Both the position numbers and the translations under genes were made by a program. A DNA stretch of 15,746 bases from a virus (lineage: Duplodnaviria; Heunggongvirae; Uroviricota; Caudoviricetes): the IMG/VR virus record IMGVR_UViG_2681813321_000028. One strand, 5' to 3'. The notes beneath the pieces were generated by a model. The model saw only the letters and a program-made list of their open reading frames with translations, ran no database searches and had not been told where the DNA came from. Shown here piece by piece: positions 75 to 15,746 of the stretch. Positions within the stretch are counted from its first letter, which is position 1; every line of letters begins with the position of its first letter.

Positions 75-389
75 TCCCCGGAGGTTGCGCCTTATCGCTG
101 GCCATTTGAAGAAAACGGGAGAACTTTCGACCTTGCGATTGAACCGCAGATTACGACTAATGATCTGCGTCTGATGTTGAGGCTGGCTCTTGCCGGCGGA
201 GGAATAACAATTGCCACTCAGGAAACTTTCAGGCCATATATTGAAAGCGGTAAGCTTGTATCGCTGCTTGATGACTTTCTTCCACAATTTCCGGGCTTCT
301 ATCTGTATTTCCCACAGCGTCGCAATATTGCACCAAAGCTCCGCGCCCTGATTGACTACGTCAAAGAATGGCGGCAGCAATTGGTTTAA
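75..389 (+). CDS. LysR-family transcriptional regulator, C-terminal (effector-binding domain) portion; 5' end outside window and reading frame interrupted
   Basis: Frame ending at TAA 387-389 translates to a typical LysR C-terminal region (LALAGGGITIATQETF...GKLVSLLDDF...YLYFPQRR). This frame has an in-frame TAG at 72-74, while a different frame is open from position 1 to about 183, implying a frameshift near the C-run at 76-79. Confidence 0.55.
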   Translation, partial: SPEVAPYRWPFEENGRTFDLAIEPQITTNDLRLMLRLALAGGGITIATQETFRPYIESGKLVSLLDDFLPQFPGFYLYFPQRRNIAPKLRALIDYVKEWRQQLV

Positions 390-856
390 ATAGCTGCACC
401 TGCACTGCCTGATGTCAGAACAGTATTTTGATGAATTGCCAAGGTTACAATGGCACAAATGCGGCACAGGAGGAAACGTGGTGTATTTAAATATGGGGTA
501 ACTCTTTGATTTTAATGGTGCGATAATAGGAACAAAACAAACAATAAAAATACATTGATATATAAAGATATTTTCACGTTACATCTTTGGAGATACCCCC
601 AAAAGTACCCCCCAAACAATTTTCTCTCACCACCATTTGCACATAAAGCAGCCATGTACAACTGGTAGTTGAACAGGCGGGTAGACCGTTCGTTCAGTAA
701 ATACCTGATATTTCCGCCAACGAGAAATTGCGTTGGCTGGCAGAGTGCAAATTTGCACGATGACCTAACCCATTGATTCTTTCGAAAACCTGCAATGCAG
801 GAAGCCGGATAACACCATTTTTATAGCTCCGATCCCTTCAAAGTGAGGGGTAATTT

Positions 857-886
857 GCCAAAACAGAGAGAGCATTACTGTCTCTG
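857..886 (-). terminator. Putative intrinsic terminator of the PerC-like gene
   Basis: Inverted repeat CAGAGA(864-869)/TCTCTG(881-886) overlapping the stop codon (875-877), followed on the minus strand by a short T-run (plus-strand AAAA 860-863). Confidence 0.3.
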
Positions 887-1162
887 GCAATCTTTATCGC
901 GATAACGCCTGAAGTACCCTCTCGCTTCCTCATCCATACCAAGAGCCGAATGAGTCCGCTTAACTGCCTGTCTTAAATCTCCGAATCTGTCTGTAGTTGC
1001 TGGTGGGCGTGCCGCCTTACGGATACATTCAGAGCGTCTGTTTGCTGCATGTTCACGTTCTTTATCGCCATCTGCCAGCATCATGACTTCTGCCCATCGT
1101 GCGGCAGCTCTCCGGTATAGCCCTTTTGACTCCAGTTCTTCAGCTTTCCTGTCCCTTATCAT
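875..1162 (-). CDS. PerC-family-like small transcriptional regulator (95 aa)
   Basis: ORF with RBS GAGG 5 nt before the ATG and a perfect TATAAT -10 (minus strand, plus coordinates 1176-1181). N-terminal motif EELESKGLYRRAAARWAEVM matches my recollection of the PerC/Pch family signature; not verified by search. Confidence 0.5.
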   Translation of the reverse strand: MIRDRKAEELESKGLYRRAAARWAEVMMLADGDKEREHAANRRSECIRKAARPPATTDRFGDLRQAVKRTHSALGMDEEARGYFRRYRDKDCQRQ

Positions 1163-1191
1163 TTCTGCCTCTCAGATTATATAGATAAGCA

Positions 1192-1319
1192 AAAAGGTGT
1201 TGGTTCAGTTGGTTCAGTTGGTTCAATTTGTAAAGATCGTTGTTTTTATTGTGTTTTTTCTGAAATATTGAACCAACATCAACTCATTTTGAACCAACAC
1301 AGCCCAGCTCTGAACCAAC
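1192..1319. repeat. Iteron cluster 1 (ori/crr-like): 3 tandem GTTGGTTCA + AT-rich spacer + 3 inverted TGAACCAAC at 21-bp spacing
   Basis: GTTGGTTCA at 1199-1207, 1208-1216, 1217-1225; AT-rich 1226-1268; TGAACCAAC at 1269-1277, 1290-1298, 1311-1319. Segment 1192-1236 is the exact reverse complement of 7628-7672. Confidence 0.75.
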
Positions 1320-1373
1320 AACACAGCGATAGCTTTGTGATTGGTCCGTTATTTTCTGGCTGATATTTGAGCG

Positions 1374-1404
1374 TATAACAGTGTTATACAGTGGTATACT
1401 GTAT
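1374..1404 (+). promoter_or_regulatory. Two overlapping palindromes (operator-like) immediately upstream of the RHH regulator gene
   Basis: TATAACAgTGTTATA (1374-1388) and ATACAGTggtatACTGTAT (1386-1404), both with perfect 7-bp arms; -10-like TATACT at 1395-1400; lies 18 bp upstream of the ATG at 1422. Confidence 0.5.
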
Positions 1405-1421
1405 GGATATTACTCACTGAT

Positions 1422-1877
1422 ATGGTCTTTGCAATGAGCAAATCTAATCTGGTCGCGTTCCGCATCCCATCTGAATTGCAGGATGAGTTTAATCGGTCTG
1501 TTCTCGCTTCTGGAGGGGATAAAACCTCCTGGCTTGTTGATGCGATTCGCATGAAGCTGGGACAGCCGGAAAAGTCTATTGATTCACGAATGCTTGGGCT
1601 GGTGGAGCGCATGGAAAAAGCCGCTGCGTCGCTTATTGCCGGAAAGCCGAACATCCCACCAAAGCCATATAACGAAACGGCAGTTATAAAGATCATTGCC
1701 GATACCATCCGACAGGGATTTGATAATGGGCGCGTGATAGCTGAACGGATCAATGAAGCAGGCTATCAAACAAAAGCTGGTAAAGCGTGGGATAAAGATA
1801 TTTACAGCGCGTGGAAGCGTCAGGGAAGCAATGCTGAAAAGTTAAAAGCGGTGATTGATTGTAAGGTCAGCGTATAA
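1422..1877 (+). CDS. DNA-binding protein: N-terminal ribbon-helix-helix-like, C-terminal resolvase-type HTH-like (151 aa)
   Basis: ORF 1422-1877. N-terminus NLVAFRIPSELQDEFNRSVLASGGDKTSWLVDAIRMKL fits the strand-helix-turn-helix pattern of RHH proteins; C-terminal IAERINEAGYQTKAGKAWDKDIYSAWKR resembles the DNA-binding tail of serine recombinases. Alternative start ATG 1434; no strong RBS. Confidence 0.6.
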   Translation: MVFAMSKSNLVAFRIPSELQDEFNRSVLASGGDKTSWLVDAIRMKLGQPEKSIDSRMLGLVERMEKAAASLIAGKPNIPPKPYNETAVIKIIADTIRQGFDNGRVIAERINEAGYQTKAGKAWDKDIYSAWKRQGSNAEKLKAVIDCKVSV

Positions 1878-1956
1878 ACATGAGTGCCCATTGGAAAACT
1901 GCTTGGGCCAATACCTTTATACACCAGCAGGTGGTGACGATGGGTGAGGATCAGGC

Positions 1957-2178
1957 ATGAAAGGCAGAACGCCACACATTGAACATCAAGCCAACCACTT
2001 CTCGGATGTTCGCAATGAGATGATTGCCATTCGCGGTGATATGCACGGCTTGGAGCGTCGAATTATTGATAAGATTGATGAAAATAGAGATAAGGCCAGT
2101 GAAAATCAAAAGTGGATCATCGGCCTGTTGATTTTATCAATGCTTATCCCGCTACTTATCGCATTGGTCACAAAATGA
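1957..2178 (+). CDS. Small coiled-coil protein with C-terminal transmembrane anchor (73 aa)
   Basis: RBS GGTGAGGA 1942-1949; C-terminal hydrophobic stretch WIIGLLILSMLIPLLIALV; ATGA overlap with an upstream 26-codon mini-ORF. Confidence 0.5.
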   Translation: MKGRTPHIEHQANHFSDVRNEMIAIRGDMHGLERRIIDKIDENRDKASENQKWIIGLLILSMLIPLLIALVTK

Positions 2179-2461
2179 ATATCCAATGTGTATGCTGTCG
2201 ATGCTACGCGCGCGTACTTGTCGCAAAATATCAGACAAAAGCCAGATTCAGAACGTCGTGATAACCACCAGCACAACAGAGAGGTCATGTAACGCGATTT
2301 ATCACACCAGATACATGTGATTGGTGTACCCGCATAAAACATCGTCATAGCGCGTCCTGTGCGCATATACGCCGATAATCAACACATCACCACCACTCTG
2401 TCTCGTGTAGAGAACAGTTTCATGGTATCCCCCGCCATCGTGTGCGTACTGGTCGGACGCA

Positions 2462-2481
2462 GTTGCAAAAAATTTTGCAAC
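2462..2481. promoter_or_regulatory. 20-bp palindrome GTTGCAAAA-AA-TTTTGCAAC flanked by repeated GCGCGTACTGGTC-type motifs
   Basis: Perfect 9-bp arms. GCGTACTGGTC occurs at 2444-2454 and 2497-2507, with related copies near 2213 and 2577. Function unknown. Confidence 0.3.
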
Positions 2482-2700
2482 TGATACCCCTCGCGCGCGT
2501 ACTGGTCACGAAATTGGTGTTTTGCTGTGGCAGTGATATCAGAAAAATCTTCCTGTTTCACATAAAGCGGATATGCGCGTACTGTAACGGCCCCATCAAC
2601 GGGGAGCGGATTTGAAATCCCGACCCAAGCTATGTACCAAATGCCATGTCTTGGATATATGATGATTGCCATTCTAAACAAAGCTAAAGGGAGGGTTGGT

Positions 2701-3051
2701 GTGAATGCTCAGGCTGTCATCATGGTTTTACTTGGTCTGATTGTCGCAAAACTATATCCAGACTGGTGGAAAGGGGCATTAGCAACTGTCGCCATCTATT
2801 TGCTTTTATCCGTCGTTAAGCGATCGTTCGTTAAGACCGTAAATCAAGCAAAACGTTTCTCATTTAAGAATTTAATAAACTATATTACTGGGCTTATTTT
2901 TTGCCTTTCAATTTTGATCGCTTCAGCTTTTTTGCCCGTATCAATAGCTAATTTTTTTGGCGCACCATATGAGGTAGGTTATCTATTCTCTGTTTTTTGT
3001 CTTGTTCTTTCCCTTCTTTACCTATGGATGAGAGCAAAGAACAAAAATTAG
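2701..3051 (+). CDS. Small polytopic membrane protein (about 116 aa from GTG 2701; ORF open from 2632)
   Basis: Strong RBS AAGGGAGGG (2687-2695) 5 nt before in-frame GTG 2701; alternative ATG 2722. Three to four hydrophobic segments. Markedly AT-rich relative to its neighbours. Confidence 0.5.
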   Translation: MNAQAVIMVLLGLIVAKLYPDWWKGALATVAIYLLLSVVKRSFVKTVNQAKRFSFKNLINYITGLIFCLSILIASAFLPVSIANFFGAPYEVGYLFSVFCLVLSLLYLWMRAKNKN

Positions 3052-3065
3052 CCATCCATGGCTAA
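3043..3065. terminator. Intrinsic terminator between convergent genes (clear for the minus-strand operon)
   Basis: Hairpin TTAGCCA-tcca-TGGCTAA (3048-3065) directly after the minus-gene stop (3070-3072), followed on the minus strand by UUUUU (plus AAAAA 3043-3047). Confidence 0.6.
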
Positions 3066-3069
3066 CCAG

Positions 3070-5175
3070 TTATTGAGATTCTTTTTGTGATGCCTGTGCG
3101 ACTCTGGTGAGCGATTGTGTGACCGTACTGATCGCTCTGTCATATGCTGTGCTACCTTTTGGCGTATTTGCCAGACGTAACAAGGCATTTCGTATAACAG
3201 GGCTTTCGTATGCCTTCGCTGCTCCGCCTACGGCACCAGCAGCAGGAACAACAAACGCAGCCGTTTTTAGCATCCCCGCTAATACTGCTGCGTTTATGAT
3301 GCCACCACCAACTAACAATCCATAAAGCTGCTGACCATTTAAGTTTTGAACGTTCGCTTTTGCCGCGTGTCTTGTATCGTTGAGGTATTTAATAACGCCG
3401 TCCAGTTCCTTTCCATGTACGCCTTTAAAGAAAGTTGCTGATTGCTTCCTGTTCCGGTGTAACGCATTAATAAACTTCTCAACACTGATATTTCCAGACG
3501 GATCAGTCGCCTTATCTACAGCATTCTGAACTATGGCTGCTCGTGCGTTTTGCCTACCATTGTCATCCAGAAGCCTGTAAAGCTGAGAACGTTCTGATGG
3601 GCTTTGGCTAAAAACGAGTTTTGTTACATCCTCAGGCGTGGCCTTGCCGCTGGCTATTGCCTTTTGAACGCGCGTTCTTCCCATCATGTCATTGAATTTA
3701 GACCATGAGCGATCAACCCTTGCCATATTAATGGCTTCGTCTGCTCCAAGATTTTTGGCTACGGCTTTTTTCATATCCGCCGTATATGCCTTGTAGATAA
3801 TATCGCTGGCTTTCTGGAGCGTATCTTTATCAACAGTGTCAGATGACGCCATAAATCGCTTTCGAAGATCGGTTCTGTTTTCCCTCGCCAGACGCAGGTC
3901 ATTTGGTCCGCTGGTGATATCGTCTTTAAATTGCTGCAAGACTTTTACCGCGGCTCTATCCTGAGATTTGCCCGGGCGGCTTAACACGGCAATCTGATTG
4001 TCGATAGCTTTTACCGTGTTTGAGAGATCGACAGGGGTATCCCCCATAGCGTCAATTATGCGGTTATATCGCTTTCCTGCTGCCTCAATGAATTTTTGTT
4101 GCCCTTTAGTCGCAGATTCATAAAGCTGTTTATCAGAAATGCCACCCAGACCATCGCTAAATGTTCTGACTAAATTTTCTCGTGCTTGTTGTTGATTCAG
4201 CCGATTCTTACCGGTTCCAAAAAAAGGAACTCTTTCGCCTAATGTCTGAGCCTGACTCTGCATAAAGGTTTTATCTTTCAGCATGTCACTGGTCATTAAC
4301 GGCAGATTTCTTTCCGATGCAAAGTCGACAGCAGCCTTTGCTTCAGGCGACATATCACCACGAACAGCCCTCGAAACCGCACTCGCTGTATTTTCCAGCC
4401 CCTTACCAATACCACCAATGCCAGCAGAAATTACCGTTTGTAACGGATCAATATCTTCTCCACCAGCAAGGCTGGTGGCTCCCTGTAGTGCTAAATCTGT
4501 AGCTGCTGATTTTCCTATGGCACTAAGCACCGTTCCAGCCCTGCCCGCTGGTGTAAACGCCAACGCATTAGCAAGAAACGAGGTCAGGTCTTGCGGTGAT
4601 AAACCCGGCTTGTTCAGGGCATAATCACCTGATGGCAGAGAAACGATAGTATTCCCCTTCTCATCCTGCCTTAATGTCGCCCCCATTCCCTGAAGAATCT
4701 TTTCCTGAGACGCGTCAGAGCCGAAAAGTTGAGACCATCCAGCCTTTAGGGCATCCATGCTTAGTGAGTTCAATTCTGGGGCAGAGGCGACATTTTGCAG
4801 TCTCTCCATCTCTGGAGTCATTCGGCTTTCGCCTGTTATAGCATCGCGCATCGCAGCCCCAAGACTGGCTCCCTGTTCTGCTGAACGCTCAAGCCCCTCT
4901 CTTTGCTGAGTAGCTAACTTTGCATACCCTGACGCAAGAGAATTATCAGATGATGTATGTTGAATATTTTGAGTTGCTGATTGGGATCGGTCTATTTCAT
5001 TCGTTGATGGTAGTGGATAGGCAGCATAAAAAGCCTGCTTAGCCTGCTCTACACTTTCTCCGGCTTGCGGGGCCACGACTTCATTGAAGTATTGCTCCTG
5101 AGCCTGCGCTTTTTGTTCTGGTGCTAACGCCTGATACTGTGGAGAGGCGATAACATCTTTCCATGCTTTAGCCAT
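3070..5175 (-). CDS. Hypothetical 701-aa protein, Ala/Gln/Ser-rich, with C-terminal Gly/Ala-rich hydrophobic hairpin (predicted membrane insertion)
   Basis: Long uninterrupted ORF; TAATG stop/start overlap with the upstream gene at 5173-5177; C-terminal segment LYGLLVGGGIINAAVLAGMLKTAAFVVPAAGAVGGAAKAY; no catalytic motif recognised by eye. Confidence 0.8.
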   Translation of the reverse strand: MAKAWKDVIASPQYQALAPEQKAQAQEQYFNEVVAPQAGESVEQAKQAFYAAYPLPSTNEIDRSQSATQNIQHTSSDNSLASGYAKLATQQREGLERSAEQGASLGAAMRDAITGESRMTPEMERLQNVASAPELNSLSMDALKAGWSQLFGSDASQEKILQGMGATLRQDEKGNTIVSLPSGDYALNKPGLSPQDLTSFLANALAFTPAGRAGTVLSAIGKSAATDLALQGATSLAGGEDIDPLQTVISAGIGGIGKGLENTASAVSRAVRGDMSPEAKAAVDFASERNLPLMTSDMLKDKTFMQSQAQTLGERVPFFGTGKNRLNQQQARENLVRTFSDGLGGISDKQLYESATKGQQKFIEAAGKRYNRIIDAMGDTPVDLSNTVKAIDNQIAVLSRPGKSQDRAAVKVLQQFKDDITSGPNDLRLARENRTDLRKRFMASSDTVDKDTLQKASDIIYKAYTADMKKAVAKNLGADEAINMARVDRSWSKFNDMMGRTRVQKAIASGKATPEDVTKLVFSQSPSERSQLYRLLDDNGRQNARAAIVQNAVDKATDPSGNISVEKFINALHRNRKQSATFFKGVHGKELDGVIKYLNDTRHAAKANVQNLNGQQLYGLLVGGGIINAAVLAGMLKTAAFVVPAAGAVGGAAKAYESPVIRNALLRLANTPKGSTAYDRAISTVTQSLTRVAQASQKESQ

Positions 5176-6653
5176 TAATCACCCCATAGTGAAGAAAAGT
5201 TACTGCTGGCTGCTGGCTGTGATACCTGCTCAGATTGCGGCAATGTCTGCGACGAAGAAGCAGTTCCTCTGTCAACTGCTGAAATAACCCGCAAAGCATC
5301 ATAAGTTCGACCAGAAGCAGCTTTCAGCGAATTGAACTGGTTTTCCATCTTCCGGCGCTTGGTATCAATGGTTTTTGTGGAATCACCAGGCTGAGGGAAA
5401 TACATTTGATAATATTTGGACATTTCAGCTGGTAGGATAGATGCCCCTGTTTCCTGACGGAGTATTGCCATTATTGCGTCATTAGCATTAACAACGTATT
5501 GCTGCTCTGCTGGGCTGAGCGTTAAGTTAGCCAGCGTCCCATTACCCAAAGCATTATTAATGATCGCCACTCGCTGTGGGCTAAGCTGGTCTTTCAGTGT
5601 ATCTATTGAATCAAGAGCATCCCTAACCCTGTATGCAAATCCAGCAGCTTTTTTAGCCCCTTCTGGCGACTTTTCCATGATCTTTTGGGCTGTTGGCAAA
5701 GCTATTGGACGAAACCCATCTCCAGATATTGGCTGGTTTAGTTTTCCCTGCTCTTCACTTCCGTCTGTGTAGTATTTTGTGACAGTGCCATCATCGTTTT
5801 CTCTAACACTCATTAATTTTTTGGCGTTTATATTAATTCCAGCCGCTGCCGCAAATGCCGCCGCCCCCTCTGGATCCGCCTTTAACATTTGAGCGTACTG
5901 ATTGTAATTCTGCATTGCTGCTGTTGGTGCATATGCTGACGTTAACGCATTTGCTCGGCTAATATCCTGCCCTCTCGCCTGAAGTGCTTCGCCAGCCTGA
6001 TTGCTGCGGATTGTCTCTGCCAACTTGCCACGCTCAATATCCCGACCTTCCATTTGATCTTTGATATCGAAATACTTCTCATGACCGAGAGAAAACAGCG
6101 CCAGATTACCTGCGAAATGCTGGAAGCCCTGCGGGTCATTAACCTGCATTTCAGCAATAGTTTCTGGAGGGATACCTAAACGACGCATCTCCTGCTCATT
6201 ATCCATCATGAACCTGCCAAATGCGCCCTGACCAAGCGATGAGGCTACCTGTGCTTTGAGCGCCAGATTGCCATAATCATCCCTTTGAGCATCATCGACA
6301 TAACTCATCCCTTTACGGACTTCCTCAAACTCTTCTGGGAATGCTGTAATAAGATTACGCATCTGCTCCCTGTCACCGGACGCATAAGCATCTGCATAAG
6401 CTTTCTGGAATGCCGCTTTACGCTCCTGCTGTTGCTGCTGCTTATAAATATCAGCAACGCCAGCCAGACCACGAAGACCTGTCAGAGCAACGTTATTTGC
6501 ACCTGAGCGAGCCAGTTCATTGTTTTCGCGGATCAGACCAAGCGTTGCGTTAATGTCGCTTGCCTTTGGCGCATTCTCATTTTGCGTACCGATGCCAGCC
6601 AGAAAACCACCAGAATTAATACCCTGTTGCCACGTAGCCATTGATTTACCCAC
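5175..6653 (-). CDS. Hypothetical 492-aa protein, low-complexity (poly-Q, Ala-rich), translationally coupled to the 701-aa gene
   Basis: ORF from GTG 6653 (or ATG 6641) to TAA 5175-5177; overlaps the upstream 57-aa ORF stop; contains QQQQQ and Gly-rich N-terminus GINSGGFLAGIG. Confidence 0.8.
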   Translation of the reverse strand: MGKSMATWQQGINSGGFLAGIGTQNENAPKASDINATLGLIRENNELARSGANNVALTGLRGLAGVADIYKQQQQQERKAAFQKAYADAYASGDREQMRNLITAFPEEFEEVRKGMSYVDDAQRDDYGNLALKAQVASSLGQGAFGRFMMDNEQEMRRLGIPPETIAEMQVNDPQGFQHFAGNLALFSLGHEKYFDIKDQMEGRDIERGKLAETIRSNQAGEALQARGQDISRANALTSAYAPTAAMQNYNQYAQMLKADPEGAAAFAAAAGININAKKLMSVRENDDGTVTKYYTDGSEEQGKLNQPISGDGFRPIALPTAQKIMEKSPEGAKKAAGFAYRVRDALDSIDTLKDQLSPQRVAIINNALGNGTLANLTLSPAEQQYVVNANDAIMAILRQETGASILPAEMSKYYQMYFPQPGDSTKTIDTKRRKMENQFNSLKAASGRTYDALRVISAVDRGTASSSQTLPQSEQVSQPAASSNFSSLWGD

Positions 6654-6819
6654 GTCCAGTTAAAGTGTAAGCCAGCGCCTTATCCATTAATCCCCGAGCA
6701 ATTTCGTGGATCGTTGGCGCAACTCCTACCTCTGATTTTTTACGCTGCTCCTCCTGAATTTTCTTTATCGCTTCCATTTGCTTCTCACTTATCAATACTG
6801 GCTTTACTGAAATAGCCAT
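6646..6819 (-). CDS. Small RHH-like protein (57 aa), first gene of the operon; absent from the supplied ORF track
   Basis: ATG at 6819-6817 preceded by RBS AAGGGGG (spacing 4-5); translation MAISVKPVLISEKQMEAIKKIQEEQRKKSEVGVAPTIHEIARGLMDKALAYTLTGRG has a strand-helix-loop-helix pattern; stop TAA 6646-6648 overlaps the start of the 492-aa gene. Confidence 0.5.
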   Translation of the reverse strand: MAISVKPVLISEKQMEAIKKIQEEQRKKSEVGVAPTIHEIARGLMDKALAYTLTGRG

Positions 6820-6852
6820 AACGCCCCCTTAGAACTGTATAAAACAACAGTC

Positions 6853-6881
6853 ATTATAGTTTCATAAAACGCAACATTCAT
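6853..6881 (-). promoter_or_regulatory. Putative sigma70 promoter of the 57/492/701 operon
   Basis: Perfect TATAAT on the minus strand (plus coordinates 6853-6858) about 35 nt upstream of the ATG; only a weak -35 (ATGAAT at 17-bp spacing). Confidence 0.3.
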
Positions 6882-6913
6882 CATTGTGATTGCAAAATAT
6901 GAAACAAATAGCA

Positions 6914-6947
6914 CAAAAAAATGCCACCGTTCAGTAGCTGGTGGCAT
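6914..6947 (-). terminator. Intrinsic terminator downstream of the 153-aa gene
   Basis: Perfect 8-bp stem ATGCCACC(6921-6928)/GGTGGCAT(6940-6947) with 11-nt loop, followed on the minus strand by a 7-nt U-run (plus AAAAAAA 6914-6920). Confidence 0.6.
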
Positions 6948-6999
6948 CGTTCTGTATGTCAGGTTTTGACAGTTTTTTTATGGACTCTAAAAACTATAT

Positions 7000-7461
7000 T
7001 TATGGAGTCGCATTACTCTTCATGGCGTGAGCTTTCCTGTTCTCTCTTTGTTCCTGGTTCCATGGATAAGTGTAATTGCCACCAGCAAAGACCATATTGA
7101 TTTTGTGAGGAACCATTAAAGCGATATCAGCACTCATGTCACTGAATGAAACACAGTGCAGACGTTCAAGCCATTTGTATGCTGCTGCCGCTTCTCCCCA
7201 CAAATTAATCCCTGCAAGTTCAACAATATCTCTGATGGAGCAGATATCAACCATCCCGTTAACGCCTGTAAAACGGCGTTTAAAGTCGCCAAGATACTTT
7301 CTGAAAAGAGTTGCTTTCATTGGTTCAGAAAGGTCTATGTATGGGAACACAACCACATCAAGCAGCATCTCCCTTCTGTTGTTCATCGGTATTACAGATG
7401 GCAAATCGGATACTTTGCCAAATACATGATGAAAAGCCTTTGCGATTATCTTCATCATCAA
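7000..7461 (-). CDS. Hypothetical protein (about 151-153 aa), monocistronic
   Basis: ORF with RBS GGGAGA upstream of tandem ATGs (7458 or 7455 the likely start; the track starts at TTG 7461); followed by its own terminator; no family recognised. Confidence 0.55.
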   Translation of the reverse strand: MMMKIIAKAFHHVFGKVSDLPSVIPMNNRREMLLDVVVFPYIDLSEPMKATLFRKYLGDFKRRFTGVNGMVDICSIRDIVELAGINLWGEAAAAYKWLERLHCVSFSDMSADIALMVPHKINMVFAGGNYTYPWNQEQRENRKAHAMKSNATP

Positions 7462-7554
7462 TCTCCCACTGAAACCAGTGATGTGGTGTTCAGATTTCGT
7501 AAAACACTCTCTAATGCCAGCCAGATGTTGTGCTCATCAATTCAGTCACGTTGT

Positions 7555-7672
7555 GTTGGTTCAAAATGCCGTGTTGTTGGTTCAGTGTTGGTTCAATAAA
7601 AAGAATAAAATCCTTATAAAACAATACTCTTTACAAATTGAACCAACTGAACCAACTGAACCAACACCTTTT
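7555..7672. repeat. Iteron cluster 2 (ori/crr-like), mirror image of cluster 1, immediately downstream of the primase gene
   Basis: GTTGGTTCA at 7555-7563, 7576-7584, 7587-7595; AT-rich spacer; tandem TGAACCAAC at 7639-7647, 7648-7656, 7657-7665; 7628-7672 is the exact reverse complement of 1192-1236. Confidence 0.75.
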
Positions 7673-7690
7673 CTACGCACATGAAGAAGC

Positions 7691-10447
7691 TCATTCTTCA
7701 GATGAGTTGTAATCTCCTGGCTGGTAATTGAGTACATAAACGTTTATTTGTCGTCCCTGAATACGTGGTGATTTTCTTTGGTATCCACGACCGCTGTTTG
7801 GTGGGGTTAGCATCCCGGCTTTTTTCAACACTTCAGCAAACTGTTTTGCGTTGAAACCACATGCGATCTCCTTTTCAAATGTGGCCGGGAATGTGTAGAA
7901 AATCATTGGGCTTTCGTCATGTTCTCCACGCTGACGGTATCCGGCTAAATCTTTGATGGGCAAATCTGCCGGGCTGTATGGAAATGGTGCAAAACGGCTA
8001 AGCCCATAGGCATTAAGAAATGCCTCCGTTTGTTCAATAATCTGCTGATGCTCTTTGTTACCTGTGCCGAACTCGCGCAACCATGCGTTATAGCTGTGCT
8101 GTATCGCATCACGGCATGTCTGAGCATCCCAGCCTGTTACAACCTCGCCTAACAACAATGCGGCCTCCAGAATGGCAAATCGCGCGGCTACACGGTGAAC
8201 CTGCTCACCATAATCGGATGGGATCAGGCTTCTCCATCTGCTTTCGCAGTCACGAACAGTTTTAATAGCCTGTTGCTGGTGGTCTGCCAGCCATTTAATC
8301 CACTCACGCCCGGACGCGCCGTGGTGATGCTGGTAAGCGTCTTTCAGTGCGTCTGCGTGCTGTTTTCCGTTCTGGTAATCGTGAAAGCGTACTGCTTTAC
8401 TCAACGGAATATTCAGCAGTCGCACCATTTGCCCGGCTTTGGTTTTTCGCCCGGAAGTAGCGATAAATGTTTCTAAATCCATTTCTCCGGTGCTGATTGC
8501 CACTGTACGCCAGCGTTTTAGATCCCGGTTTCCACCATCTTTAGCGCCTTGCAGTTTCCCTACACCGTTAAATAACGCATAGGCAGACTGTGAAACACTG
8601 ACAGGATCAGCGCCCTGACCAACTTCATCAAGCGGCATTAGTCCGTCATTGTGGGCGGCAGCTTCATTTGCCAGCCCCAGCGCGGTTCCGTACCACGTCA
8701 GCCGCAGTAAATCAGGGTTGCCGTATAAGCTGCTCGCCACGTTTGCCGTGGTGGTCTTACCTGCGCTCGACTGCTCATAGAAATGAATGCCGAACCCGTC
8801 AGCGCCCACCAGCCCAATCAATGGCGCTGCCAGTGCTGCGCCGATCCCGGTCATCATTGAATAGTTACCAAAGGCCAGACGCGCCACGTTATCACGCCAG
8901 CTTTTCGCGCTCCCTGAGACGGTATATCCGGCTGCGGCTGAGCTTCTCCCGCTGAACAGCACAGGATTTTCAGGTGTTCCGATGATTTCCCCATCAGGCA
9001 TGATGTACGCTCCGCATTGCCAGCCAGTGGCATGAGCAACACGCCACAATTCACGAGAGCCACTGCGTTGTAGCCAGTCTGCCAGTATTGCTCTGAGGCT
9101 GCTTTTGGTCGTGACATTTACCCCACCAGCTTTAAGTGTGCGCCATCCTTCACGTTCACCAATATCAGCCAGTGGAATGGCAGCGGTTGTCGGCGTTTCA
9201 GAACCAAACGACAGCCAGCGAAGAATGAGATACTGGTCTTTATCGTCTCTGCCAGTACCGATAACGCTTAACGGAGAACATAACCAGCTTTCGTTATTGA
9301 TGATTTCTCCACTCTGGCTGTCAGCTCTCGGAGATACCCAATAAATACCATCCTCGCGGCTTTCTATTCTTGGTTTCAGTGGGTCGGTATCCATAACCTT
9401 AAAATCGCTTCCCTCAATGGTCTGTGGCTCCTGTTTCACGCCATTACCCTGTGGTTGGTACATTGACTTATTGAACGCTTCTGTGGCGCATTTAATGCCG
9501 TGTTTTTGGTGGTAATCATTCCAGTCTGCTTTGTGATCTGTCGGGGGTAATGCCACCCATCCAGAAACAGATAAAGCTGCCTTTTCTGCTGCTATTCTCC
9601 CCGTGTTTTGTCTTCCTTCGCTGTGGTCGTTATCCGCAGCAATGATGATTTGTGCTGAAGGAAATTTATCCCGCAGTACCTGGGCGACATATAACAGGTT
9701 CCCGGCATCAATCGCCGCCACTGTCAGCGCCTCTGGACGAATTAAATGGGCAGATAATGCCGTTGCCAGCCCTTCTGCGATTAAGATGCTCTGTGTTGTT
9801 TCTGGTGCGTTTATGGCGTGATATGCCCCCCGCTTTGCTGAACCTGTCAGGAGTCTTTTTTCACCATGTGAGGTAATAGTCTGTGCTGCTGTTACTGCGC
9901 CGGATTTATCCACCAGCGCCAGCAACAGAGATCCATCGGGCAACACGGGGAATGTAAAATCACCTACCCCTTTCGCAACCAGATAATCAGATTTGCCGTT
10001 TACAGCCTTTCTGCGCATGTCATCAAACTGACGGGAAAACGTATCCCGTCTTTGTTGTTCGTCCTTCTCTGCCCTTTTCAGGCGCTCCTGTTCGCGTCGC
10101 TGGCGCTCGGTTTCCAGTTGTTCCCGTTTCTGGCTGGTGGCTTCTGGTGTTTCCGTTGTCCGGTAATCAATACCCAGAACATCAGCGGCAAGAAGCGCCG
10201 CCTCTGTTGTGTCGCAGTTATTTACGCGTTTAATTAAATCCAGCCCATCACCAGCGCCGCACTGATTACAGATGAAGCTACCGCGCCCGTTGTCATCGAA
10301 CCGGAATCGATCTTTGCCCCCACATGCAGGGCAGGGAGCATGACGGCGCGGAGAGTCAGGGACATTTATGTTCAGGCAGCCCAGCACATGAGGCCAGTTG
10401 TTTTCAGACGCACTGATAACCTGACGGATAAGATCAATGTTTCGCAT
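7691..10447 (-). CDS. Primase-helicase of the P4 alpha type (zinc ribbon + TOPRIM primase + P-loop NTPase), 918 aa
   Basis: N-terminal CPACGG...CNQCG zinc-ribbon motif; TOPRIM-like IAEGLATA ... IIAADNDH; P-loop-like SSAGKTT; RBS GGGGG upstream of ATG 10447; iterons directly downstream. Confidence 0.9.
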   Translation of the reverse strand: MRNIDLIRQVISASENNWPHVLGCLNINVPDSPRRHAPCPACGGKDRFRFDDNGRGSFICNQCGAGDGLDLIKRVNNCDTTEAALLAADVLGIDYRTTETPEATSQKREQLETERQRREQERLKRAEKDEQQRRDTFSRQFDDMRRKAVNGKSDYLVAKGVGDFTFPVLPDGSLLLALVDKSGAVTAAQTITSHGEKRLLTGSAKRGAYHAINAPETTQSILIAEGLATALSAHLIRPEALTVAAIDAGNLLYVAQVLRDKFPSAQIIIAADNDHSEGRQNTGRIAAEKAALSVSGWVALPPTDHKADWNDYHQKHGIKCATEAFNKSMYQPQGNGVKQEPQTIEGSDFKVMDTDPLKPRIESREDGIYWVSPRADSQSGEIINNESWLCSPLSVIGTGRDDKDQYLILRWLSFGSETPTTAAIPLADIGEREGWRTLKAGGVNVTTKSSLRAILADWLQRSGSRELWRVAHATGWQCGAYIMPDGEIIGTPENPVLFSGRSSAAAGYTVSGSAKSWRDNVARLAFGNYSMMTGIGAALAAPLIGLVGADGFGIHFYEQSSAGKTTTANVASSLYGNPDLLRLTWYGTALGLANEAAAHNDGLMPLDEVGQGADPVSVSQSAYALFNGVGKLQGAKDGGNRDLKRWRTVAISTGEMDLETFIATSGRKTKAGQMVRLLNIPLSKAVRFHDYQNGKQHADALKDAYQHHHGASGREWIKWLADHQQQAIKTVRDCESRWRSLIPSDYGEQVHRVAARFAILEAALLLGEVVTGWDAQTCRDAIQHSYNAWLREFGTGNKEHQQIIEQTEAFLNAYGLSRFAPFPYSPADLPIKDLAGYRQRGEHDESPMIFYTFPATFEKEIACGFNAKQFAEVLKKAGMLTPPNSGRGYQRKSPRIQGRQINVYVLNYQPGDYNSSEE

Positions 10448-11536: not shown

Positions 11537-11727
11537 TTTTCACCCCCAAGAATTACCAGCTCGGCACGGGCATCGTTAACCAAAGATGAGCACGCTTTAA
11601 TCGCATCCACGACATCAGCAGCGTCCATTTCTTCAGCCGAAAGACTGACAGCAACCAGGACAGCCGCTGCTTGCTCGATTAATTGAAGTGCGGACGTAAG
11701 GCGAGGGGTATTAATTGAGTTATTCAT
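11533..11727 (-). CDS. Hypothetical small protein (64 aa from ATG 11727)
   Basis: ATGAATAA overlap with the upstream gene (11720-11727); GGGGG upstream; the ORF track's longer version starts at 11784. Confidence 0.45.
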   Translation of the reverse strand: MNNSINTPRLTSALQLIEQAAAVLVAVSLSAEEMDAADVVDAIKACSSLVNDARAELVILGGEK

Positions 11728-11938
11728 TGGTTGCCCCCGTTTTGCATGGCATTTGTCCACCTTCCAGCAGGAAATGAACGTCACGAACGGCGAGATCCAA
11801 TATCGCGAGTAACGCCTTCAGTTTTTCGTCTCGTGAGGGAGAGTTGCTCACCAGAATGTCATTAATCACTTCTGTCAGTGTGATGATCTGGCTTGTGCGT
11901 TCGAGGGGATCCATATGCACATCGTAGGTTTTAATCAT
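11720..11938 (-). CDS. Hypothetical small protein (72 aa)
   Basis: Strong RBS GGAGGTG 6 nt upstream of ATG 11938-11936; it is the 3' part of a 355-codon open frame that I treat as composite. Confidence 0.5.
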   Translation of the reverse strand: MIKTYDVHMDPLERTSQIITLTEVINDILVSNSPSRDEKLKALLAILDLAVRDVHFLLEGGQMPCKTGATNE

Positions 11939-12424
11939 GTGCCACCTCCATGCGGATACGACCAGCAAAAAAGCAGACGTGATCGCGCACCAGAGAACGG
12001 CGAGCATCGCGTTCAGACTCGGCAGCAATATGATGAATTTTGGCGGTAATTGTCGGGCAATCGCGGCGAACTGCGGCGATAATCCAGATAAATTGCGGTT
12101 TTTGGGTAGGGGTAGTAGCCAGCATGTGGCAGCCTCCATTCGATAGCATGTAACGCTACCACCGGAAACGCCAATTTCGCTGGTGGTAGCCCAGACAGGG
12201 TTGGCGTAACCGGCTCGAATGGATACCGGCGCTTCCGAAGAAGCCCCTGCCTGAGCCACCATTGATTGACAAAGGCGCTGGATTATACACCAACGCCCAA
12301 AAAATGGGTGAGTCAGACCTACGACATAAAAAAAGACGCTCGGCGCGTCATATGTCGCCATTCGATTTACCAGGACGCCAATCCCGGCACCCGTTTTATG
12401 AGGTGCCTTATAACCATAAACCGT

Positions 12425-12452
12425 GTTGCCGCATAACGGCAAGCTCTTTTTT
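12425..12452 (+). terminator. Terminator-like hairpin plus T-run on the plus strand inside the low-coding region
   Basis: Stem TTGCCG/CGGCAA with 5-nt loop (12425-12442) followed by TTTTTT (12447-12452); the strand is opposite to the surrounding operon, so function is uncertain. Confidence 0.25.
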
Positions 12453-12780
12453 ATGGACTCCGAAAACTCACTATTGGAAGAACCAGAAGCACAGTACATC
12501 GCGCTCATTTCGTTAACGTCACGCGCGTGGACGAAGGTTTTTGTGGAGTCACTACGCGAGCAGAGAAAGCCATCTACGACCAGAAATTCTCTGGCGCAGC
12601 CGCTGACCTTCTCAACGCTAACACCATCGACCGTAATTTCTGACATAGTTAAGGCATCCGCTCCTACCACCAGCAAATGATAAACTTTGCTTGTATCTGC
12701 TGTATTAATGCCTGACTTTGCTGTCATATTGCTGGATTTTGGCGACATACCAGCCAGTGAAAATGTCTTCTTCTGGGCGG

Positions 12781-12963
12781 TTAGCATTTGTTAACCTCCG
12801 CGAACTCCTTCATGAAACGTGCCAGCGGTTGTACGCATGGCGATTGATACCCGTCGCGATAAAACGTCACTCGGTTGTGAGACACGCTTTCGACAGTAAC
12901 GAGTGCTCCGTGGGCATCTTTGTAGCGTTTTTGAGGTTGTGGTGTTCCTGTCGGCTTAAACAT
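12781..12963 (-). CDS. Hypothetical small protein (60 aa from ATG 12963)
   Basis: Strong RBS GGAGGCGG 3 nt upstream of ATG 12963-12961; ATGTTTAA overlap with the antirepressor-like gene stop; stop overlaps a further downstream start at 12787 preceded by GGAGG. Confidence 0.4.
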   Translation of the reverse strand: MFKPTGTPQPQKRYKDAHGALVTVESVSHNRVTFYRDGYQSPCVQPLARFMKEFAEVNKC

Positions 12964-13871: not shown

Positions 13872-14549
13872 ATGTCCATCATTTTTAATGGACACTATCG
13901 TATGAAACACCGGACCTGGATCACTGAAGCTTTACGTCTTCACTTTGAAGAACATTTACCCCGGGTTGTGGCCGGGCGTCGCCTGGGTGTACCAAAATCA
14001 ACAGTTTGTAGTATGTTCGTGCGCTTTCGGAGAGCTGGCCTTTCGTGGCCTTTGCCCGCAGGCATGTCGGAGCAGGAACTTGATGCCTGCCTTTACGGAC
14101 AATTTTCCACGGTACCAGTCGTACGTCCTGAAAGCACCGTTATATCCGAAGCCCCCGTGGTAAAAAAACGTCCCCGGCGGCCCAACTTCCCTTATGAGTT
14201 TAAAATCGCCTTAGTGGAGCAGTCACTGCAGCCCGGAGCCTGTGTGGCGCAGATCGCCCGGGAAAACGGAATCAACGATAACCTGCTCTTCAACTGGCGC
14301 CATCAATACCGGAAAGGTGGCCTGCTGCCTTCCGGAAAAAATATGCCGGCACTGCTTCCCGTGACGTTAACGCCGGAGCCGGATAATAAAATCCCGGCCC
14401 CCGCACAGGAACCAGAGCAGATAAATACACCGTCCGACAGTCTGTGTTGTGAGCTGGTTCTGCCGGCCGGAACTCTCAGGCTTAAAGGTAAACTGACGCC
14501 GGCGTTATTACAGACACTTATCCGCGAAATAAAAGGGAGCAGCCACTGA
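13872..14549 (+). CDS. tnpA: IS66-family accessory protein TnpA (orfA) with an approximately 95-aa N-terminal HTH-like extension
   Basis: C-terminal two-thirds (KKRPRRPNFPYEFKIALVEQSLQPGACVAQIARENGINDNLLFNWRHQYRKGG) matches IS66 orfA as I recall it; the N-terminal part (WITEALRLHFEEHLPRVVAGRRLGVPKSTV...) looks like an HTH from a transposase N-terminus; true start uncertain (ATG 13872 or 13902). Confidence 0.65.
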   Translation: MSIIFNGHYRMKHRTWITEALRLHFEEHLPRVVAGRRLGVPKSTVCSMFVRFRRAGLSWPLPAGMSEQELDACLYGQFSTVPVVRPESTVISEAPVVKKRPRRPNFPYEFKIALVEQSLQPGACVAQIARENGINDNLLFNWRHQYRKGGLLPSGKNMPALLPVTLTPEPDNKIPAPAQEPEQINTPSDSLCCELVLPAGTLRLKGKLTPALLQTLIREIKGSSH

Positions 14550-14896
14550 TGATATCTCTCCCTGCAGGTTCGCGTATCTGGCTGGTTGCAGGTATCACCG
14601 ATATGCGAAATGGCTTTAACGGCCTGGCATCAAAAGTTCAGAACGTCCTGAAGGATGACCCGTTCTCCGGACACCTGTTCATCTTCCGCGGACGCCGGGG
14701 TGACCAGATAAAAGTGTTGTGGGCTGACAGTGACGGACTGTGCCTCTTCACCAAACGCCTGGAGCGGGGCCGCTTCGTCTGGCCAGTCACCCGTGACGGC
14801 AAGGTGCACCTTACTCCGGCTCAGTTATCCATGCTTCTTGAAGGTATCAACTGGAAGCACCCGAAACGAACGGAACGCGCTGGAATCCGCATATAA
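14549..14896 (+). CDS. tnpB: IS66-family TnpB (orf2), 115 aa
   Basis: MISLPAGSRIWLVAGITDMRNGFNGLA...HLFIFRGRRGDQIKVLWAD is the hallmark IS66 TnpB sequence. Confidence 0.9.
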   Translation: MISLPAGSRIWLVAGITDMRNGFNGLASKVQNVLKDDPFSGHLFIFRGRRGDQIKVLWADSDGLCLFTKRLERGRFVWPVTRDGKVHLTPAQLSMLLEGINWKHPKRTERAGIRI

Positions 14897-14915
14897 CCCG
14901 TTGTAAAGTGAGGAT

Positions 14916-15746
14916 ATGGACACCTCACTTGCTCATGAGAACGCCCGCCTGCGGGCACTGTTGCAGACGCAACAGGACACCATCCGCCAGATGGCTGAAT
15001 ACAACCGCCTGCTCTCACAGCGGGTGGCGGCTTATGCTTCCGAAATCAACCGGCTGAAGGCGCTGGTTGCGAAACTGCAACGTATGCAGTTCGGTAAAAG
15101 CTCAGAAAAACTTCGTGCAAAAACCGAACGGCAGATACAGGAAGCACAGGAGCGAATCAGCGCACTTCAGGAAGAAATGGCGGAAACGCTGGGTGAGCAA
15201 TATGACCCGGTACTGCCATCCGCCCTGCGCCAGTCTTCAGCCCGTAAACCGTTACCGGCCTCACTTCCCCGTGAAACCCGGGTTATCCGGCCGGAAGAGG
15301 AATGCTGTCCTGCCTGTGGTGGTGAACTCAGTTCTCTGGGATGTGATGTGTCAGAGCAACTGGAGCTTATCAGCAGCGCCTTTAAGGTTATCGAAACACA
15401 ACGTCCGAAACAGGCCTGTTGCCGGTGCGACCATATCGTGCAGGCACCAGTACCTTCAAAACCCATTGCACGCAGTTATGCCGGAGCGGGGCTTCTGGCC
15501 CATGTTGTCACCGGGAAATATGCAGACCATCTGCCGTTATACCGCCAGTCAGAAATATACCGTCGTCAGGGAGTGGAGCTGAGCCGTGCCACACTGGGGC
15601 GCTGGACAGGTGCTGTTGCTGAACTGCTGGAGCCGCTGTATGACGTCCTGCGCCAGTATGTGCTGATGCCCGGTAAAGTCCATGCTGATGATATCCCCGT
15701 CCCGGTCCAGGAGCCGGGCAGCGGTAAAACCCGGACAGCCCGGCTG
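14916..15746 (+). CDS. tnpC: IS66-family transposase TnpC, N-terminal 277 codons (3' truncated by window end); not in the supplied ORF track
   Basis: ATG 14916 preceded by GTGAGGA; frame open to 15746; leucine-zipper-like N-terminus and CCPACGG...C...CCRCDH zinc-finger motif typical of IS66 transposases. Confidence 0.9.
   Translation, partial: MDTSLAHENARLRALLQTQQDTIRQMAEYNRLLSQRVAAYASEINRLKALVAKLQRMQFGKSSEKLRAKTERQIQEAQERISALQEEMAETLGEQYDPVLPSALRQSSARKPLPASLPRETRVIRPEEECCPACGGELSSLGCDVSEQLELISSAFKVIETQRPKQACCRCDHIVQAPVPSKPIARSYAGAGLLAHVVTGKYADHLPLYRQSEIYRRQGVELSRATLGRWTGAVAELLEPLYDVLRQYVLMPGKVHADDIPVPVQEPGSGKTRTARL

Follow-up and report, generated by a model that had tools for sequence, protein, structure and literature searches.

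Two mirror-image copies of a probable origin unit, parted by ejection and accessory genes, in an EcCIMP1-like phage-inducible chromosomal island of Escherichia coli

The DNA analysed here, referred to as the window, is a stretch of 15,746 nucleotides (nt) from a Caudoviricetes record (IMG/VR IMGVR_UViG_2681813321_000028). It is an EcCIMP1-like phage-inducible chromosomal island (PICI), i.e. a phage satellite of Escherichia coli. The window carries two clusters of a 9-nt iteron, GTTGGTTCA, one beside the stop codon of the gene for the island's primase-helicase (Pri-Rep) and the other beside a gene for a PerC-family regulator. We consider it probable that these clusters are two mirror copies of the PICI origin unit, both read by the island's own Pri-Rep and split from each other by a module of ejection and accessory genes.

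A preliminary description of the window, made from its letters alone, had reported a perfect 45-nt inverted repeat, and this proved exact on recheck: 1192-1236 is the reverse complement of 7628-7672, one further base on each side mismatches, and a repeat finder lengthens the match to 55 nt at 95%. In random sequence of the same length, the expected number of such pairs is about 1e-19. The gap between the arms is 6391 nt and the outer span 6481 nt. All 12 exact copies of GTTGGTTCA in the window fall inside the two clusters (0.16 expected, at most 2 in 200 shuffles), starting at 1199, 1208 and 1217 (+), 1269, 1290 and 1311 (-), 7555, 7576 and 7587 (+), and 7639, 7648 and 7657 (-). In each cluster a 43-nt spacer separates three tandem copies, spaced 9 nt apart, from three oppositely oriented ones. 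The positions of the latter had also been described correctly; a slight departure from the earlier account is that their phasing is 21+21 nt in the left cluster and 21+11 nt in the right one. Both spacers are richer in A+T than the window as a whole (52%). The homology between the two units extends over approximately 175 nt, from AAAAGG at the outer limit, through the phased copies, to a CTGGCTG motif at the inner limit. Rfam and NCBIfam searches added nothing on the clusters themselves, whose parts are as follows:

1192-1236, plus strand: left arm of the 45-nt inverted repeat, AAAAGGT followed by three tandem iterons and ATTTGTAAAGA
1199-1225, plus strand: tandem iterons of the left unit, three copies of GTTGGTTCA at 9 nt; the PerC start codon is 36 nt away
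1226-1268, no strand: 43-nt AT-rich spacer of the left unit (79% A+T), candidate DNA-melting site
1269-1319, minus strand: inverted iterons of the left unit, with 21-nt phasing (1269, 1290, 1311)
1356-1362, plus strand: inner-side CTGGCTG motif of the left unit, a partial copy of the CTGGCWGG of relatives
7517-7524, minus strand: inner-side CTGGCTGG motif of the right unit (CCAGCCAG at 7517-7524)
7555-7595, plus strand: inverted iterons of the right unit (7555, 7576, 7587; spacing 21 + 11 nt)
7596-7638, no strand: 43-nt AT-rich spacer of the right unit (84% A+T)
7628-7672, minus strand: right arm of the 45-nt inverted repeat
7639-7665, minus strand: tandem iterons of the right unit, at the canonical PICI origin position (PMC6092414), the primase stop codon being 25 nt away

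PICI origins are located immediately 3' of pri-rep and ‘always’ contain an AT-rich region with an iteron set on either side (Fillol-Salom et al. 2018, PMC6092414), and pri-rep-ori from EcCICFT073, a Gram-negative PICI, replicates a plasmid (PMC6092414). Both units of the window have this layout. The right one also has the position, and because it lies directly 3' of pri-rep with the published layout we regard it as the canonical origin, whereas the left one, 6.4 kb away, shares the layout only. What distinguishes the window from an EcCICFT073-type origin is the second complete mirror unit, which is adjacent to the first in compact relatives or, as in the window and EcCIMP1, 4.8-9.7 kb off at the far end of the island. 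This second unit is undescribed in the texts of the PICI literature that we searched (figures aside), and literature searches on P4 crr, two-origin PICIs and the iteron sequence returned nothing relevant.

We propose that each cluster constitutes one complete unit, in which three tandem iterons and three inverted iterons would enclose a 43-nt AT-rich melting region. At the right unit, a self-loading helicase of the type of Rep of the Staphylococcus aureus pathogenicity islands (SaPIs) would bind the iterons, open the spacer and prime synthesis, recognising the unit via its C-terminal domain. The left unit would be a second, mirror-image copy bound by the same Pri-Rep. In the lineage of the window the mirror-symmetric halves of the origin would have been parted by the helper-exploitation and accessory module, and the separated units might act in the manner of ori and crr of phage P4, or the left one as a second origin of opposite polarity on the excised circle.

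This proposal is consistent with the layouts found among relatives. Viral contigs were scanned, which gave 80 loci (denoted by L numbers) with primases 52-100% identical. In 77 of the 80 an iteron cluster begins 27-60 nt past the primase stop. Three layouts occur: a single unit, two units within approximately 300 nt of each other, and two units 4.8-9.7 kb apart. The split layout appears in at least 5 primase clades (delimited at 88% identity), interleaved with the other layouts. The preliminary description had proposed an alignment of related elements to see whether the two clusters are neighbours where the cargo is absent. Neighbouring units do occur: those of L023, L035, L064, L067 and L071 form a true mirror pair, each half of which has its own AT-rich spacer. 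Together with L035, where the module lies outside the pair, these loci bear out the part of the earlier suggestion which placed the cargo between replicator repeats. The other part, insertion of the cargo into a replicator, needs qualifying. Both halves in the window retain the central CTGGCTG motif, so this is not a simple insertion into a compact origin, and the module is the satellite's own rather than foreign.

The motif CTGGCWGG is most frequent in the compact form. Lying about 30 nt inside the phased iterons, at about +160 to +200 after the primase stop, it is present at 29 of 30 compact double loci, 8 of 17 split loci and 4 of 30 single-unit loci, the background being 0.064 per 200 nt. 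As it contains CTG triplets, one speculation is that it serves as a priming site. The outer flank of the left units (window 1177-1194; L038-L063) bears another conserved element, TATA(T/G)ATAAGC(A/G)..AAA, which could be an outward promoter or a host-factor site; right units are without it and have a CACATGTGAG-like sequence at the primase 3' end in its place.

Several relatives show further arrangements. In a number of lineages the distal unit is the final feature of the island, e.g. L059 (15922-16146), where dinD lies about 220 nt beyond it, and L043 and L047, where another element's integrase comes next after the left unit. Since it comes last in the island, the distal unit would adjoin attP on the excised circle, like crr of P4. 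In L023 (16131-20546) a compact mirror origin accompanies a 77%-identical primase. The contig measures 53 kb, and head, neck and tail-sheath genes of the myovirus type follow about 3.4 kb downstream, so this replicon module may serve complete phages too. L003 (572-690) has a left-type unit and a PerC-like gene 9.4 kb upstream of where the primase begins; tandem islands or a permuted contig could account for this. With the most distant primases (L078, L079 and L081, 52% identity), iterons are absent downstream of the gene, but a cluster of six, each with one mismatch, is present about 5.4 kb upstream.

A second line of evidence links the iterons to the primase itself. Among relatives we found six iteron variants, GGTGGTTCA, GTCGGTTCA, CGTGGTTCA, ACGGGTTCA, ACGGGTTAC and GTTGTCTCA; in each such element the variant replaces GTTGGTTCA in all 9-12 copies of both halves and leaves the architecture unaltered. 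The primase-helicases of elements with variant iterons diverge from those of GTTGGTTCA elements specifically over the last ~80 residues (window about 7694-7927). Where the helicase cores of two proteins were at least 90% identical (such pairs are phylogenetically non-independent), C-terminal identity averaged 0.95 when the iteron was the same (n=275) and 0.56 when it was different (n=69). The primase segment aligned to TPPNSGRGYQRKS-PRIQGRQINVYVL shifts with the iteron sequence and is therefore a candidate for the part that sets origin specificity. We also considered another iteron-binding protein encoded nearby: no similarity to the primase C-terminus was found in the 151-aa and 153-aa open reading frames (ORFs), and neither PerC nor the 151-aa ORF tracks the iteron sequence, so this candidate was rejected.

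A natural swap is seen in L002, which is 99.5% identical to the window over window positions 810-7063. Its primase retains the N-terminus but continues into a DUF5906 (P4 alpha-like) helicase with another C-terminus. Beside the swapped gene a different iteron, GGTACAGGT, occurs in 10 copies that form two clusters. These clusters (16511-16606 and 17615-17717) are about 1 kb apart with two small genes between them, an independent two-cluster arrangement, and the former GTTGGTTCA unit beside PerC remains as an orphan. Iteron position, covariation of the six variants with the C-terminus and the L002 swap thus agree with the earlier proposal that the clusters would be the cognate sites of the adjacent primase, and from them we infer that Pri-Rep binds both units.

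Several observations weigh against a split origin served by Pri-Rep. All 17 split loci, as well as the window and EcCIMP1, share one iteron, and compact forms are the only ones to show the covariation. Less than 60 nt separate the C-terminal domain from the right unit, so part of the covariation could be recombination-tract linkage. An AlphaFold2 model of the C-terminal domain, built on a 27-sequence alignment, had a mean predicted local distance difference test score (pLDDT) of 51.6, a quality at which a DNA-binding fold could not be confirmed. One unit only is carried by about 20 relatives for which 10 kb of sequence lies downstream, from which it follows that the second unit is inessential in this family. 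Finally, L002 and the deleted remnant L084 keep an intact left unit without a cognate helicase; the left unit can thus outlast its function, at least briefly.

Since the genes on either side of the units enter into the alternatives discussed below, they are listed here:

875-1162, minus strand: PerC-family regulator, just outside the left unit (Pfam PF06069, E=2.6e-33)
1422-3051, plus strand: three genes converging on the gp16-like gene, i.e. a 151-aa ORF, a 73-aa ORF and a 139-aa predicted membrane protein
3070-5175, minus strand: P22 gp16-like DNA transfer protein (phrog_770, E=1e-162)
5175-6653, minus strand: P22 gp20-like ejection protein (Pfam Inj_translocase, E=5.6e-84; phrog_917), matching P22-like phages
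7000-7461, minus strand: 153-aa ORF without assigned function, the first gene inward of the right unit
7691-10447, minus strand: Pri-Rep, 918 aa, a Zn-ribbon and TOPRIM primase fused to a DUF927 helicase of the SaPI Rep / Cch type (Pfam, PHROGs)

The segment between the units, called cargo in the preliminary description, is the satellite's own helper-exploitation module (the P22 gp20/gp16-like ejection proteins) together with a variable accessory slot, and not foreign DNA. In close relatives DUF2824 and a 225-aa gene take the place of the 153-aa ORF, and that of the 73-aa ORF is occupied by an Abi gene or an ImmA/IrrE pair. The other split loci examined (L038, L040 and L042) differ in the genes between their units, which variously encode a single-stranded DNA-binding protein, a small terminase, a transglycosylase-bearing virion protein, a hub-like protein or a tape measure protein. 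Specifically, L040 has an 892-aa tape measure protein (15413-18091) between two origin units, and L042 has the transglycosylase-bearing virion protein, the hub-like protein and the small terminase (12092-16096). Satellites of this family hold DNA-delivery proteins of different helper types between the units, those of the window (3070-6653) being P22 gp20/gp16-like. In L035 the genes for gp20, gp16, the membrane protein and the 151-aa ORF of the window are all present but placed after an adjacent unit pair and PerC; therefore, the position of the block made of the left unit and PerC relative to the module varies among lineages.

It is tempting to go one step further and regard the mirror pair as a functional design, although we advance this as a possibility only and hold it to be doubtful. 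The space between the units would then be a slot for keeping and exchanging helper-matched delivery or packaging genes and defence-like genes (P22 gp20/gp16-like here; tape measure, transglycosylase, hub or small terminase (TerS) elsewhere), while the distal unit, placed terminally in the island and next to the attachment site, would work together with the proximal one through crr-like looping by Pri-Rep or through firing with opposite polarity. If this were true, the arrangement would set the direction of replication, or would lead to amplification of the intervening module or of the island ends after induction.

The opposite explanation is that the left unit is an inert relic, a duplicated or displaced half of the origin which is tied to PerC and the island end, and that the right unit alone works. 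The existence of single-unit relatives, the intact left units of L002 and L084, and L035, in which the same gene set works with an adjacent pair, are all in agreement with this. On the other hand, all six left-unit iterons have been kept in at least 5 primase clades with unrelated cargo and flanks. In these lineages the iteron columns of the left unit are 0.93 conserved versus 0.68 for other columns and the sequence past the unit is unalignable, which indicates that the distal unit is under constraint. The length of the left-unit spacer and a AATTTGTAAAGA..TTGTTTT element are conserved too. In addition, the left unit of L085 (14224-14494) departs from other left units, which read ‘atcaactcattt’, in having ‘aacacggtattt’ between two of its phased iterons; this 12-nt patch is identical to the sequence in its own right unit (20379-20610), so gene conversion between the arms has apparently taken place, which also counts against an inert left unit. 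As regards L002 and L084, both are 93-99% identical to intact islands and hence too recent to show decay. We therefore find a relic rather unlikely.

We also considered that the clusters act mainly as operators, bound by Pri-Rep or another factor, for the inward operons (the 151-aa ORF on the left; the 153-aa ORF, gp20 and gp16 on the right) and for PerC, or that the distal array titrates or handcuffs the initiator for copy control, like incA of P1. Extra iteron arrays in iteron plasmids are copy-control loci. Moreover, the two units share their polarity relative to the inward gene, with phased copies 102 and 93 nt upstream of the ORF starts, the left unit is the only place for a PerC promoter, and its outer flank bears the conserved TATATATAAGC element. 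However, a consensus scan found a sigma-70-like promoter in neither region (chance alone would give 1.2-1.6), the two units of compact relatives enclose no gene, and in several lineages it is the island end and not PerC that lies beyond the left unit. The absence of covariation of the iterons with PerC or the 151-aa ORF, reported above, points the same way. A primarily regulatory role is thus unlikely; it is compatible with an origin function, to which it is a minor, non-exclusive rival.

The preliminary description had further suggested that the repeats support homologous inversion of the whole segment. A perfect 45-nt inverted repeat could in principle serve as a substrate for RecA-dependent inversion (or, if the process were site-specific, for a recombinase) and yield two isomers of the 6.4-kb segment, and the conversion patch in L085 implies that the arms do interact. 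Nevertheless, when the junction of a synthetic inverted isomer was queried, it occurred in 0 of 5426 complete E. coli genomes, versus 255 for the native junction, and the orientation of gp20/gp16 relative to the primase is constant in every relative that carries them. The perfect inverted stretch is just 13-37 nt long in other lineages, and no invertase or recombinase domain was found in any ORF in 875-10447. Inversion is accordingly very improbable, and an invertible segment of the Gin/Hin/Cin type was rejected, as neither a recombinase nor both orientations were seen. Hardly credible is a transposon-like mobile cassette bounded by the inverted repeats: the geometry alone speaks for it, but the cargo has no transposase, the outer bases of the arms (..gataagc / ctacgca..) form no target-site duplication or other flanking direct repeat, and the repeats are iteron arrays that are also found next to each other or singly beside the primase.

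Among known replicons, phage P4 offers a close parallel to the split pair of origin units. In the annotated P4 record, from which its layout was taken, crr begins 46 nt after the alpha stop and ori is 4.7 kb away, and each 120-nt crr unit is built of two repeats 9 nt apart, a gap and inverted copies, much like the unit of the window. In both systems a single initiator, with a primase N-terminus (common to Pri-Rep and the P4 alpha-type initiator), a helicase and a C-terminal part that is putatively origin-binding in Pri-Rep, is accompanied by two arrays of one short repeat lying kilobases apart on a small circle, one of them directly 3' of the initiator gene. However, the P4 repeat is an 8-mer of another sequence and not the 9-mer GTTGGTTCA; the type 1 repeats of P4 and its two direct 120-nt crr units are replaced in the window by single, inverted units, and the distant array of P4 is ori. 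The P4 arrays bracket the replication operon, whereas those of the window bracket the cargo. Also, the helicase of the window is of the DUF927 (SaPI Rep) type and not of the D5/DUF5906 type of P4 alpha; an alpha-like DUF5906 helicase appears only in L002. The ori/crr likeness drawn in the preliminary description consequently stands as a functional and geometric analogy, and fails as family membership in repeat sequence, unit orientation and helicase family.

Initiator-binding repeats in more than one cis location are also known from oriR/incA of P1 and from the alpha, beta and gamma sites of R6K, with looping or handcuffing between the arrays. The Rep and pi initiators of those replicons recruit host DnaB, whereas the initiator of the window is itself a primase-helicase and each of its arrays holds an AT-rich melting region of its own. 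The helicase part of Pri-Rep is homologous to PDB 8tch_A (E=1e-11), which carries the label ‘Pathogenicity island protein’, and to Cch, a helicase of SCCmec (5dgk_A), both of which we take to belong to the self-loading SaPI Rep/Cch class.

The remaining content of the window supports its assignment to the EcCIMP1-like islands. Further ORFs encode an AntA antirepressor and an Ash-family protein (11720-12787). Within the Ash-family ORF, Rfam matches above the gathering scores were obtained for C4 antisense RNA (12179-12266, minus strand, 79.5 bits) and isrK (12329-12406, minus strand, 67.1 bits), which suggests that this PICI has an immunity RNA of the P1/P4 type. Just upstream of the antirepressor gene, an IS66-family element (13872-15746) comprises an HTH_Tnp_1 orfA (13872-14549), TnpB_IS66 (14549-14896) and then a transposase region; by comparison with the near-identical L001 it splits the island of the window from its AlpA/integrase end. 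Many E. coli chromosomes carry near-identical islands whose far end bears an integrase and an AlpA-like regulator, and the same island has been annotated in E. coli genomes. The gene set is that of the EcCIMP1 type: integrase and AlpA (seen in L001; in the window they would lie past the IS66 insertion), antirepressor, Ash, TOPRIM/DUF927 primase, DNA-transfer proteins and PerC, with no capsid, tail or lysis genes. A LysR substrate-binding-domain fragment at the left end of the window (174-389) matches the paoD-side flank of L087 and L088, which places this copy in the chromosomal neighbourhood of EcCIMP1, while L001 sits between dinD and yicC.

EcCIMP1 itself, a PICI of E. coli MP1, is excised and transduced upon induction of the P22-like phage Kapi1 (PMC11773190), and within the EcCIMP1-like group helper-induced excision, replication and transfer have been demonstrated for this island only (PMC11773190). 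Its description does not mention an origin or repeats (Pick, Stadel and Raivio 2025, PMC11773190). In the EcCIMP1 locus (L083) we found GTTGGTTCA clusters beside PerC and beside the primase stop, 8.5 kb apart. The two islands therefore agree in gene set, primase family, chromosomal neighbourhood (paoD / LysR-fragment side) and cluster positions. EcCIMP1 differs in having DUF2824, the 225-aa gene, a longer transglycosylase-containing protein and the wider spacing of its clusters, and the window in its extra IS66-family insertion.

The element and the origin unit are thus already known, but the mirror second unit and the polymorphism between compact, split and absent second units appear to be undescribed in the texts searched. 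PICIs are widespread agents of gene transfer and phage interference, and a single origin adjacent to pri-rep is the only one described for them. Relatives in which the second unit is adjacent, absent or kilobases distant constitute a natural series for studies of how a self-loading primase-helicase uses iteron geometry, and this series also bears on whether satellites employ two-site control of the P4 kind. The covariation of the iterons with the primase C-terminus predicts which residues would determine origin specificity, and hence the incompatibility of co-resident satellites. EcCIMP1, which shares the split layout, is an experimentally tractable member of the group.

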